DNA from: Bacteroidota bacterium
GTDB lineage: Bacteria; Bacteroidota; Bacteroidia; B-17B0; Aurantibacillaceae
Assembly (NCBI GenBank): GCA_043749245.1
Contig: JAYVDU010000565.1
Span: 1-57,010 of the forward strand
Reading direction: 5' to 3'
DNA: 57,010 nucleotides
In this document: piece by piece, positions 22,807 through 25,711 of the stretch
Layout of the letters: each line of letters begins with the position of its first letter
How positions within the stretch are numbered: position 1 is the first letter of the stretch
Position numbers and translations under genes: made by a program
Notes under the pieces: generated by a model
Seen by the model: only the letters and a program-made list of their open reading frames with translations
Told to the model about the DNA's origin: nothing
Database searches by the model: none

Positions 22807-23610
22807 TCAACTATGTTGGAAGTTTCTCAAATGCATTTTAGGTACATATTTCTTTGCCTTTATACCCGCTTCTTCGACTGATTCGTGTAACTCTGCGATC
22901 TTAAAATTCAAATTTCTATTCGTTGATATTAGTAGCATTTGAATTGTAAATAAAACTATTCTACTACTTGCCATTATTAATTGCGTATCAAAAGGCTTAG
23001 TTGAATTCCATTCGCCGGGTTCGCTAAATTGCAAAGCACCATGTGCAAACGAGTTTCTTATTTTATAAACAACTTTTAGACCTATAAGATTGCTACTTGC
23101 ACACTTACCTTCTGAGAACAAATTCTCTACCTCTCCATGCCATGGATTTTTTGTGAGAATTGTTTTAATGTACTGCACAACATCGCTATAATGTTCGATC
23201 ATCGGGAAAGAGCCTTCATAATTCTCTTTTAGAAAATGATTAACATTGTTAATTTTCCCAGGTTGAACCTTACAAGTCGACACTTTGAGCGTGTCCAAAA
23301 AAGCTTCAAAACCACCCCAAATAAAACTAAAGCGCGTTAGCTCTTTGATAAGTTGTGAGTGAAATTTTGATTTAGCTTCTTCGTATTCCATAGTCGGACC
23401 ACATTGAAACATACTTCCATCATGTAAATCACTTATGTACTTCACTTCTGTTATGCCAGATGCAATCTGAAACCAAGAAGAAATATTCGAGTCAAAATCC
23501 TCTTCAAAAATAAAAAATCGTGTAATATTATGACAGTGTCGGTCTAAATCTACAAACGGGCCATGCTTAGAACACATGACGGACGTACAAATTTTATTTG
23601 TGGAAGCCAT
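22807..23610 (-). CDS. HEPN-like protein (R-x4-H motif), function unknown
   Basis: KIRNSFAHGALQF contains R-x4-H in a predicted helical C-terminal half. Last gene of the dnd-linked operon. Confidence 0.45.
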   Translation of the reverse strand: MASTNKICTSVMCSKHGPFVDLDRHCHNITRFFIFEEDFDSNISSWFQIASGITEVKYISDLHDGSMFQCGPTMEYEEAKSKFHSQLIKELTRFSFIWGGFEAFLDTLKVSTCKVQPGKINNVNHFLKENYEGSFPMIEHYSDVVQYIKTILTKNPWHGEVENLFSEGKCASSNLIGLKVVYKIRNSFAHGALQFSEPGEWNSTKPFDTQLIMASSRIVLFTIQMLLISTNRNLNFKIAELHESVEEAGIKAKKYVPKMHLRNFQHS

Positions 23611-23618
23611 TTTTCTTT

Positions 23619-23879
23619 CTATTCCTCATATTTTATCCAAGCTGGCTCGCCATCTTTGTCATTAAAAGTATAAGCAATAGCATGATGTATAACAGGATCT
23701 TTTTCTTTCCAATACCTATATGCCGCCCCAACACTACTGGCTAAACCTCTATTATTCCCATATTCAACCCCTTTATCTGCTAAAATTTGATTTAATGCAG
23801 ATAGGCTTATTTTAATTTTTTTTGAATATAAACTGATTGCTAAATCGCCTATGAATTCATAAATTTCATGTTTTTCCAT
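23619..23879 (-). CDS. Small hypothetical protein (86 aa)
   Basis: ORF tightly packed (9-10 nt spacers) between the DGQHR and HEPN-like genes. Confidence 0.5.
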   Translation of the reverse strand: MEKHEIYEFIGDLAISLYSKKIKISLSALNQILADKGVEYGNNRGLASSVGAAYRYWKEKDPVIHHAIAYTFNDKDGEPAWIKYEE

Positions 23880-23888
23880 AATAATTAC

Positions 23889-25169
23889 TTAATTATTGAT
23901 AATTCTATTAGGTAATAATGCGTTTTCATTTTGCATACTTTTTCTGTAATTCCGTAATAAACTCGACATTTGAGCACCCGTTATAGGTAAATTTAAATGA
24001 TAAAAAATGTAATCTCTAATAAATGATTTTGATCCTATTATTCTATTTCCTATGGGATCCCAAAGAATATTATGCCAAAATATATCTGAAATATTATCAG
24101 GAATATGGCTAATTATATTTAAATCAGCCAGCCTATTTAGTCTTTGCATTTTTAAATAAAATTCACAGAATATAACTTGTCCAAGTGGACGAAGGGAAAA
24201 TGGCCCGCCAGTGTTTCTTCTATCTATATCAATTGTTTGAGCGAATGTGGCGGCATTAGGAAACAATTGAAAAAAAGTGTCCCAGAAATTAAATATCTTA
24301 ACCTTAACCGTTTCAATGACTTCGTCTTCAGGTCTGATTCTAACTAAATTTGTTTTAGGGCCAGTATATCTTGGATAAACATCTCTTGGGTCAATAAGCA
24401 TTTCGTTTATGTTCCAGAGTGCAATAACAGATGTAAACTTATTTCTATCTCTTGGTAGTTTAATATCGGCAGTTTTGTTTAATGCTATTAATTCTCTATT
24501 CTGCATTAAGTGAAATTCTTCTATAAATTTTCTTACAATAATAGATGACACATCATCTTCGTCTAATAAAATACTTTCCCCAAGAGAAACAGGTTTAGCA
24601 TATCTATTAATTATTGAAAACAATCTTCGTGTTTTCTTCTTTCCAGGCACATCGTCAATATGAGTTATTAAAGTCAATGCTATTTGATTATCTCCTATTT
24701 CTGGATTTTGTTCATAAGCAATACGTAATGTTTTTAACCTATGTTGCCCATCCAAAACAAAAAGAGTTTCATCGCCATTCAATTTTATTAAACCATATGA
24801 TCCAATTATATCATCATAGTCAATATTTTCAATTTCTTCATTTAATGAACTTCTCTGAGCTTCAATTTGTATCCATTCTGGATTTCCACCGTAAATAGCA
24901 ACAGTTAAATTATTAATATACGCATCAGGTTGCTCATTAATAAATTTTCTAATCGGTTCTAATCGTCTATTATCCAAAACACGTTGTAATAAATTATTTA
25001 TTCCCCTTTGAGAATAAATAACTTCTACTTCATTTGTAGTTTTAATTCGATAATTAGGAATATCGTTTGTTCCATAATTTTTGACAATATCTTTTATTTT
25101 AAATATAACTTGATAGTATGGCCAATTTTGATAATTAGCTGTCAATGCAGGTAATAAAAGTATATCCAT
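23889..25169 (-). CDS. dndB: DGQHR-domain protein, DndB-like
   Basis: Signature LFVLDGQHRLKTL. Upstream LQRVLDNRRLEPIRKFI and downstream RRLFSIINRYAKPVS match the DndB/DGQHR pattern. Confidence 0.75.
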   Translation of the reverse strand: MDILLLPALTANYQNWPYYQVIFKIKDIVKNYGTNDIPNYRIKTTNEVEVIYSQRGINNLLQRVLDNRRLEPIRKFINEQPDAYINNLTVAIYGGNPEWIQIEAQRSSLNEEIENIDYDDIIGSYGLIKLNGDETLFVLDGQHRLKTLRIAYEQNPEIGDNQIALTLITHIDDVPGKKKTRRLFSIINRYAKPVSLGESILLDEDDVSSIIVRKFIEEFHLMQNRELIALNKTADIKLPRDRNKFTSVIALWNINEMLIDPRDVYPRYTGPKTNLVRIRPEDEVIETVKVKIFNFWDTFFQLFPNAATFAQTIDIDRRNTGGPFSLRPLGQVIFCEFYLKMQRLNRLADLNIISHIPDNISDIFWHNILWDPIGNRIIGSKSFIRDYIFYHLNLPITGAQMSSLLRNYRKSMQNENALLPNRIINN

Positions 25170-25180
25170 GATTTTAATCT

Positions 25181-25711
25181 TTAAACATTAATTAGTCTAC
25201 GATAAGCTTGGGCAAACTGAGATTTAAGCCTTAAATTGAATGGAGGCAAAATAGAATCAATTAAGCTATATTCTAAAATATCTAAATTTGCTTGCGGCAG
25301 ATTAATTGTTTCATAATAATGTAATTTCAAAAAATTTCCAAAATATATTATCATAAAACGTTTTTCTTGATCTGATGCTTTTTTTGAATTAACATAATTA
25401 AAATACCCTAATAGCCTTGATTGAAGATTATCTGCCTGACCGACGTATAAGGTGAAATCAGCATTATGATTATACATTGAAAATGCATAAGGGTTAAACG
25501 TAAACATATAAATCCCCTGAACCTGATTTAAAGTACTAACGTTTAGTCTTGTAAAATCAATAGATGTCCAATTTATAGTCCTTAAAAGCTGTATATTATC
25601 ATACGGGAAACTAGAAATGTAATCATAATTAAGATTAAACCTTCTATGCCTCAAAGTAGTTTGAGATAATAGTTGTTCATTAGTAATTGCTGGGCCATAT
25701 AAACTTGCCAT
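25181..25711 (-). CDS. GIY-YIG nuclease domain protein
   Basis: QGIYMF...LYVGQADNLQSRLLGYF...LEYSLI...PPFN gives the GIY, YVG, conserved Arg, Glu and Asn positions of GIY-YIG. The GIY-YVG spacer is longer than usual. Confidence 0.6.
   Translation of the reverse strand: MASLYGPAITNEQLLSQTTLRHRRFNLNYDYISSFPYDNIQLLRTINWTSIDFTRLNVSTLNQVQGIYMFTFNPYAFSMYNHNADFTLYVGQADNLQSRLLGYFNYVNSKKASDQEKRFMIIYFGNFLKLHYYETINLPQANLDILEYSLIDSILPPFNLRLKSQFAQAYRRLINV

Follow-up and report, generated by a model that had tools for sequence, protein, structure and literature searches.

A GIY-YIG/DGQHR gene pair with an optional last gene, a candidate HEPN-type RNase, in a probable dnd cluster of the DndE-HerA/FtsK type from Bacteroidota

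The stretch of DNA analyzed here (the window: all 57,010 nucleotides of positions 1 to 57,010 of contig JAYVDU010000565.1, assembly GCA_043749245.1, from a Bacteroidota bacterium) carries genes of the dnd (DNA phosphorothioation) type, among them a dndE fused to a HerA/FtsK-type ATPase. Four consecutive minus-strand open reading frames (ORFs) lie behind dndE::ATPase within 22807-25711 and encode a GIY-YIG nuclease, a DGQHR/DndB-like protein, an 86-aa protein and a 267-aa protein with an RNxxxH motif (Table 1). A first-pass annotation of this DNA had described four tightly packed ORFs on one strand with these motifs, and the ORF list of the window bears this out: 5 nt separate the dndE::ATPase stop from the GIY-YIG gene, the next spacers are 11, 9 and 8 nt, and only 12 nt lie between the end of the 267-aa gene and the stop of a convergent cysteine desulfurase gene. 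Since full-length conserved homologues exist elsewhere for each of the four ORFs, these are genuine genes, not ORFs that arose by chance.

The window proteins were compared with those of 40 loci (labelled Lnnn), which were fetched by means of three unknown window proteins. We consider it probable that the locus is a Bacteroidota dnd cluster with DndE fused to HerA/FtsK, carrying a GIY-YIG/DGQHR pair and an optional effector in the last slot, and that the 86-aa gene is a hitch-hiker. The region between dndE::ATPase and dndA is variable. Its usual first occupant is the GIY-YIG/DGQHR unit, inherited and exchanged as a whole, and its last slot is optional, being empty or filled by an Mrr-like restriction endonuclease, an RmuC-like nuclease, both of these, or the 267-aa RNxxxH protein.

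The 176-aa product of the first gene scored below the curated Pfam cut-offs (PF01541, 19.2 bits against a gathering threshold of 22.6; PF20815, 19.0 against 22.4) and was matched by TIGR01453 at 3.1e-6. Its homologues carry precomputed PF20815/PF01541 matches marked as faint, and one that is 66% identical bears the NCBI name "GIY-YIG nuclease family protein". In 21 homologues, some of them only 22-26% identical, G66, Y68, Y89, G91, E147 and N159 were invariant and R99 was at least 90% conserved. The AlphaFold2 (AF2) model had a predicted local distance difference test score (pLDDT) of 73.6, with core blocks at 82-93, and the best Foldseek match in the PDB was the GIY-YIG domain of UvrC (1yd5; E 2.9e-3, probability 1.00, TM 0.65 on the target), with R.Eco29kI, T4 EndoII and I-TevI among the further matches. 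Sequence and model thus confirm the earlier assignment of this protein to the GIY-YIG (URI) nuclease superfamily, its catalytic residues being conserved and its modelled fold matching, even though the window protein itself falls below the Pfam cut-off. A metagenome scan with the GIY-YIG alignment yielded three loci only, and tblastn against plasmids and phages gave no match to this protein.

The 426-aa product of the second gene passed the cut-offs of both TIGR03187 (76.9 bits against 58.85; 2.1e-21) and Pfam DndB (72.4 against 29.1; 4.5e-20), so that the DGQHR assignment also held. The motif D140-R144 was invariant in the family alignment, and QR, TRRLF..N and DEDD motifs were conserved as well. 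On the other hand, the protein reached only 47.4 bits in the DndB equivalog model TIGR03233 (cut-off 328), and its match to GmrSD_N/DUF262 was weak (5.8e-4, 20.5 bits against 33.2). By sequence it is confirmed as a member of the DGQHR/DndB family, but it is not a DndB equivalog. The position of its gene downstream of the modification genes had been called unusual. In all relatives, however, the DGQHR gene lies 3' of dndE::ATPase. It is the sole DndB-like gene of clusters of this subtype, none of which has a dndB ahead of dndC, and its place downstream is therefore the norm for them.

The relatives share a recurrent Bacteroidota backbone of dndC, dndD, dndE::HerA/FtsK and, in most cases, a dndA convergent with them. 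The GIY-YIG and DGQHR genes always occurred together, directly after dndE::ATPase, in every locus with enough flank. The order dndE::ATPase, GIY-YIG, DGQHR was found in 13 of the fetched loci, which amount to about nine distinct ones (L005, L013/14, L018-23, L033-37), with a convergent dndA within the flank in all except L005 and L013/14. Two relatives, L005 and L018, show how the pair is transmitted. Their backbones resemble that of the window to a similar degree (DndC 63 and 64% identical, DndD 60 and 61%, DndE::ATPase 73 and 70%), whereas their GIY-YIG and DGQHR proteins are about 25 and 27% identical to those of the window in L005 and 66 and 71% in L018, indicating that the pair is swapped as a unit. 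Divergent alleles changing places on a backbone that stays constant are what one would expect of defence components.

These data bear on the possibility that the pair serves modification only, the DGQHR protein being the DndB of this subtype and regulating phosphorothioate (PT) frequency, and the GIY-YIG protein nicking DNA for sulfur insertion like SspB, with no restriction involved. The DGQHR protein does score above the Pfam DndB threshold, no other DndB-like protein is encoded in these clusters, the conservation of the pair is about that of DndC, DndD and DndE among close relatives, and clusters with an empty last slot exist. We nevertheless regard this explanation as unlikely. Four clusters (L006, L008, L009, L011) have the same dndC-dndD-dndE::ATPase backbone with other cassettes and no GIY-YIG gene, for example ParB_N+HTH_ParB+DUF6602 or HATPase_c_3+Methyltransf_35, and GIY-YIG therefore cannot be essential for modification. 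The exchange of the pair as a divergent allele is typical of defence components, and in the Geobacteraceae locus L015 the pair stands behind a second DndD-like ATPase, not the modification one, beside a separate and complete canonical dndBCDEA.

A three-gene cassette of ParB_N, HTH_ParB and DUF6602 replaces GIY-YIG/DGQHR in dnd clusters that are similar in other respects, L006 (7860-9969), L007 (7873-9991) and L008 (7829-9946). Because this cassette occupies the same place, a ParB-superfamily protein recurs in the GIY-YIG/DGQHR position. Proteins of about 170 aa resembling "dnd_assoc_4" come after the second DndD-like ATPase in L001, L003, L007 and L015. They were considered as cognates of DndE and rejected, hhalign against DndE having given no detectable similarity, with shallow alignments.

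The slot after DGQHR was empty in L034/35, held an Mrr-like restriction endonuclease (Mrr_cat) in L018-21, an RmuC-like nuclease in L022/23 and both in L033/36/37; in the window, as in L005 and L013/14, it was filled by the 267-aa protein. Just past dndA, a stand-alone 153-aa sulfur-binding (SBD) protein of the ScoMcrA type and a 175-aa protein, conserved but unmatched in Pfam, were found in L020 (14016-15008), L021 (9453-10445) and L034 (11005-11532). An HNH_2 protein is encoded divergently from dndC in L022 and L036/37.

The 86-aa gene, which lies between the DGQHR gene and the last gene in the window, behaved differently from its neighbours. Its product had no match in Pfam, NCBIfam, PADLOC or PHROGs, and none in plasmids and phages by tblastn. 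The family comprises 46 clusters, nearly all 65-89% identical, from Bacteroidota, Gammaproteobacteria and Spirochaetes, with about 70% identity between Bacteroidota and Gammaproteobacteria. In every context inspected (L024-L030) the gene was solitary, standing beside an integrase and IS110 copies or between housekeeping genes. It directly adjoins a divergently oriented integrase in L026, lies inside an integron-cassette-like array of small genes with ParE/Phd pairs in L025, and is downstream of a Hachiman system (HamA and helicase) in L027/L028. No other dnd locus among the 40 fetched contained it. We conclude that it is a promiscuous mobile hitch-hiker, unrelated to the dnd system.

The first-pass annotation had taken the four genes for one self-contained, undescribed restriction or abortive-infection module riding on the dnd locus. 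Strong linkage to dnd genes in other genomes was found for the GIY-YIG, DGQHR and HEPN-like genes, but the 86-aa gene was unlinked. The single-module explanation can point to the tight packing of the genes on one strand behind dndE::ATPase, to their nuclease-type domains and to the dnd linkage of three of the four families elsewhere. The locus census has already largely refuted it, and we judge it very improbable: the four-gene set occurred in none of the 40 fetched loci, the 86-aa gene stands alone in unrelated contexts in other phyla, the last slot is interchangeable, with Mrr, RmuC or nothing in place of the 267-aa gene in the closest GIY-YIG/DGQHR clusters, and the 267-aa gene also ends dnd clusters that have no GIY-YIG/DGQHR (L001, L006-L011, L017).

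The 267-aa protein belongs to a large family (606 clusters at 50% identity, E 1e-3 or better) with a wide association with PT genes. In 14 of 17 non-redundant loci with this protein, dnd or ssp genes were present within 10 kb, including plasmids of Alphaproteobacteria and loci of Geobacteraceae. The gene adjoins dndA in three phyla, usually convergently, and follows dndA in the Geobacteraceae locus L015. On two Rhodobacterales plasmids, where RefSeq names its product a hypothetical protein, it lies between dndBCDE-dndA and a pbe-like cluster, and in L004 it is beside sspBCD. The exceptions include L038, the one locus that a scan of viral contigs with a narrow alignment of the family gave, and the Geobacteraceae locus L016 (6079-11223). 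In L016 no dnd genes are nearby; a cpYpsA SLOG-domain protein is encoded directly after the gene and a WYL/WCX regulator about 2.8 kb away, a pairing that may represent a separate nucleotide-sensing defence pair.

R185, N186, A189, H190 and G191 were invariant in the family (R185-N186-S-F-A-H190 in the window protein), and among 84 divergent members E102, N186 and H190 were invariant and R185 at least 90% conserved. The AF2 model was confident (pLDDT 89.5) and all-alpha. In its secondary structure the motif (185-190) falls where helix 177-189 runs out, ahead of the loop to helix 208-230, and E102 is in the long upstream helix 71-107. HEPN domains are defined by an Rx4-6H motif with a polar residue (N, D or H) after the arginine (PMC3710099), and the 267-aa protein has a motif of this form with a polar residue at that position. 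The RNxxxH at the end of a predicted helix and the invariant upstream glutamate would agree with a HEPN reading, which is favoured. The only recurrent Pfam matches of family members were four HEPN families, all below threshold: HEPN_RiboL-PSP in 6 of the 84 members (best 1.1e-4), pEK499_p136 (1.6e-4), AbiA_CTD (0.006) and Cthe2314 (0.021). Judged from sequence and model, the protein is probably a HEPN-type RNase. Of the earlier claim of a HEPN-like R-x4-H motif, the motif stands, as an invariant RNxxxH of a whole family, but the Pfam matches to HEPN are sub-threshold only.

Several null results count against the HEPN assignment. The window protein had no match in Pfam, NCBIfam, PADLOC or PHROGs; Foldseek of its model returned no hit with E under 0.4 from the PDB or BFVD; hmmsearch with close and broad family profiles against PDB sequences returned nothing relevant; and, no Pfam match reaching its threshold, HEPN membership is not confirmed. 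That neither fold nor profile searches matched a HEPN structure or family significantly, and that the gene lies next to dndA, would suit a protein that is not an RNase at all but a dndA-linked accessory, for example one that regulates, binds DNA or acts as a PT or sulfur-relay partner, and in which RNxxxH has another role. This seems to us improbable, since N186 and H190 do not vary and R185 hardly varies across divergent members, the form and predicted position of the motif fit the HEPN definition, HEPN families are the only ones recurrently matched, and the gene is also found without dndA, beside sspBCD, next to the SLOG-domain gene and on the viral contig. A kinship of the 267-aa family with the HEPN reported in DndB was also considered and was rejected, hhalign of this family against the DGQHR family having shown no similarity.

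Table 1. Features of the dnd locus and of the block inserted in it (window coordinates).
Feature	Position	Strand	Motif or basis
dndA-type cysteine desulfurase, convergent with the operon	21616..22794	+	PADLOC DndA 9.2e-166, SspA 2.4e-166; Pfam Aminotran_5 3.2e-86
All-alpha RNxxxH(G) protein, 267 aa, probable HEPN-type RNase	22807..23610	-	YKIRNSFAHG; last slot, adjoining dndA
Small protein, 86 aa	23619..23879	-	no noted motif; no library match
DGQHR/DndB-family (ParB-superfamily) protein, 426 aa	23889..25169	-	FVLDGQHRL; TIGR03187, Pfam DndB
GIY-YIG (URI) nuclease, stand-alone, 176 aa	25181..25711	-	QGIYMF...LYVGQADNLQSRL; Pfam GIY-YIG, TIGR01453, AF2 and Foldseek
DndE (residues 5-109) fused to HerA/FtsK-type P-loop ATPase	25717..27270	-	Pfam DndE 2e-20, AAA_10, FtsK_SpoIIIE, HerA_C
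DndD-type ABC ATPase, whole frame including in-frame TAA	27260..29356	-	TIGR03185, PADLOC
dndD, part after the TAA	27260..29188	-	TIGR03185 9.2e-63, profile 66-635
dndD, N-terminal 52 codons, Walker A GRNGFGKTT	29198..29356	-	TIGR03185 1e-14, profile 1-48
Mobile block, about 7 kb coding	29903..36864	mixed	Pfam and NCBIfam matches
Rep, G2P-like	29903-30748	+	Pfam/NCBIfam
Fic	30784-31845	-	assignment by reading the sequence
Tyrosine recombinases, two overlapping genes	31911-32891, 32858-33856	-	Pfam/NCBIfam
531-aa ORF, no matches	33898-35493	-	
RstR-like repressor	35659-35991	+	Pfam/NCBIfam
dndC (residues ~1-430) fused in frame to Rhs core end and toxin-like C-terminus (~460-739)	36902..39121	-	TIGR03183, TIGR03696

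The position and orientation of dndA in the window match those in the relatives, and the orthologues of DndE::ATPase are 69-73% identical in the closer ones. The modification genes themselves look damaged in the window, which the first-pass annotation had missed. An in-frame TAA at 29198-29200 is codon 53 of dndD and replaces the conserved tyrosine of WCLYG(R), the sequence reading LVWCL TAA GGT AAA CAA ATG where six relatives have this tyrosine (WCLYGR). A product restarted at the next ATG (29188) would be devoid of Walker A. Recoding of the TAA was considered and rejected, as there was no further sign of recoding and all other genes of the locus read normally with table 11.

The best PADLOC model for the DndD-like protein was "PbeC" (PDLC02742, 1.6e-167), against 2.1e-68 for the best DndD model. 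No CxC motif was found in the window protein, which is 60-62% identical to the DndD encoded directly after dndC in relatives. The missing CxC motif and the place of the orthologues right behind dndC assign it to the DndD clade; the PbeC label on a protein of this clade could mislead automated system calls.

The dndC gene is displaced and chimeric, which was likewise missed. Its DndC part is clear (TIGR03183, 1.7e-133, 445.8 bits against a cut-off of 290.4, residues 15-430; PADLOC DndC 1e-150), and homology to the DndC of relatives ends about 12-15 residues short of their stop. The end of an Rhs core (TIGR03696 RHS-associated core, 1.1e-11, residues 460-543; YRYSFNKQEKDDE...DPRLGKFWSIDP) and about 200 further residues follow instead. 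The chimeric ORF has the appearance of a dndC whose 3' end received an orphan Rhs toxin cassette by recombination. Behind the Rhs end lies a 164-aa ORF (36370-36864, minus strand) that could be the cognate immunity gene.

Every relative has dndC directly beside dndD or overlapping it. In the window about 8.4 kb separate the dndC breakpoint, near 37830, from the dndD start at 29356, and this gap contains the mobile block of Table 1. The part at 29903-35991 resembles an integrated filamentous-phage-like or satellite element; no convincing flanking direct repeats were found around the block. The window does not hold intact dndC and dndD in one operon, as a functional DndACDE module would, and a working modification module is unlikely, given that dndD carries a nonsense codon and that a mobile block has come between it and dndC. 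From the sequence, the dnd system of the window is probably inactive and its copy decayed, which makes it a poor exemplar of the locus type.

The DndE-HerA/FtsK fusion was reportedly first noted by Krishnan et al. in 2020. The text of Rakesh, Aravind and Krishnan 2024 describes, for a subset of dnd systems, fusions of DndE with HerA/FtsK domains beside a DndD-related ATPase (HerA/FtsK clade 3; PMC10853773). The window locus is like these clusters in having a DndD-type ABC ATPase beside the fusion and dndC and a cysteine desulfurase in the cluster, and differs in its interrupted dndD and its displaced, chimeric dndC. The same text lists URI (GIY-YIG), HEPN, PIN, restriction endonuclease, HNH and HKD nucleases in dnd neighbourhoods, predicts them to be restriction components or backup suicide effectors, and treats DndB as a possible ParB-type effector. 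According to Makarova et al. (PMC3632139), DGQHR/COG1479 domains are often fused to HNH, PD-(D/E)xK-like or HEPN nuclease domains. The general idea of nucleases in dnd neighbourhoods as effectors is already published, on computational grounds only, and the claim that the combination was undescribed was too strong in view of these two papers. Our locus agrees with the neighbourhoods covered by the 2024 text in domain classes and context, and the HEPN-like gene stands at the cluster boundary, on the opposite strand in the Rhodobacterales plasmids. In contrast to them, the GIY-YIG gene of the window is internal, not at the boundary, and is tied to a DGQHR partner. The text of PMC10853773 has no mention of a fixed in-operon GIY-YIG/DGQHR unit, of its allele swapping or of a variable last slot, and the size of the 267-aa family and its linkage to dndA across phyla were not found in the text consulted either; the figures of the 2024 paper or Krishnan et al. 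2020 may show part of both. For the 267-aa family, none of Pfam, NCBIfam and PADLOC offers a model.

No recognised PT restriction partner had been seen in the window by the first-pass annotation, and PADLOC agreed: no DndF, DndG, DndH, PbeA or Ssp protein was detected among the locus proteins and nine other large ORFs of the window. A relation to DndFGH is nevertheless visible in the DndE-fused ATPase, which shares homology with the HerA/FtsK ATPase that forms the end of DndH (PADLOC match to the DndH C-terminus, 8.1e-33), a likeness that had also been overlooked. Unlike DndFGH, the window locus lacks DndF and DndG as well as the seven remaining DndH domains. PbeABCD is defined, in the text of PMC10853773, by a CxC ABC ATPase, PbeA (HKD and SF2 helicase) and a small PbeB. 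It was rejected for the window in spite of the top PADLOC label, the window protein having no CxC Zn-hook, PbeA and PbeB being missing and the orthologue in relatives lying directly after dndC. True pbe-like clusters do sit beside the 267-aa gene in L001, L039 and L040.

The pair also recalls SspE, the PT-sensing effector of Ssp systems, in which a DUF262/DGQHR NTPase and a DUF1524 nickase form one polypeptide; our analogy follows PMC9646914. As in SspE/GmrSD, a nuclease goes together with a ParB-like domain of the DGQHR kind, and the combination is associated with a PT-writing system. Unlike SspE, the two functions are on separate polypeptides and no SspE-type fusion was found, GIY-YIG takes the place of the DUF1524 His-Me finger, and the DGQHR protein is nearer to DndB than to DUF262, so that the resemblance would be one of function, by analogy only. 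The 267-aa protein can be set beside the HEPN RNase effectors (RiboL-PSP, AbiA C-terminal, pEK499_p136, Cthe_2314) in the same way. It shares with them the RNxxxH(G), placed by the model at a helix end, a conserved upstream glutamate, an all-alpha structure and a defence-type context, and it departs from them in having sub-threshold matches only and no structural match, and in its length of 267 aa, about twice a minimal HEPN domain.

A mechanism for such clusters can be sketched. DndC, DndD, DndE and DndA would put phosphorothioate on self DNA. The DGQHR protein would act as a nucleotide- and DNA-binding sensor or regulator, comparable to DndB or to the DUF262/DGQHR half of SspE, and the GIY-YIG protein would nick or cleave unmarked DNA, possibly aided by the DndH-like HerA/FtsK motor. 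The last-slot protein may be a second-line effector, in the window a putative metal-independent HEPN-type RNase that would arrest the cell. Only tentatively, and at odds we would put clearly below even, do we extend this to a stronger proposal: that GIY-YIG/DGQHR, perhaps with the DndE-fused motor, is a PT-dependent restriction arm and a split analogue of SspE, that the six-gene clusters are complete one-operon restriction-modification systems, and that the 267-aa family is a PT-linked abortive-infection RNase acting when the first line fails.

Other observations pull against this account. The nuclease genes of the window are full length beside a broken dndD, which is unexpected for an arm that attacks unmodified self DNA; intact nucleases fit only if the loss is recent, if the operon is silenced, or if the arm itself needs DndD. 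The dndD TAA could mark a pseudogene or be a sequencing error. The identity of GIY-YIG/DGQHR does not track that of DndE::ATPase, contrary to what close co-evolution in a complex with the motor would produce. As DndB is an established regulator of modification, regulation may be all that the DGQHR protein does.

Most dnd modification clusters have no classical DndFGH partner. For the restriction of DNA in such genomes the locus type described here offers two compact candidates, the in-operon GIY-YIG/DGQHR pair and the large unannotated RNxxxH family that tracks dndA across phyla. If either proved to be PT-dependent, it would be a new effector class for phosphorothioate-based immunity, and a Pfam or PADLOC model for the 267-aa family would be justified.

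Outside the dnd cluster, the left end of the window carries a tyrosine integrase with an Arm-DNA-binding domain (496-1854), followed by an AAA_5 ATPase and an N6-adenine methyltransferase (5517-8789), which form another possible defence unit, and infB (IF-2) lies on the right side (48976-51855). This context of integrase, methyltransferase and infB indicates that the dnd cluster sits in a chromosomal island. Megablast of window positions 2500-20500 against phages gave no match. Integrases of the type found at the left end of the window flank dndA in L001 and L003.

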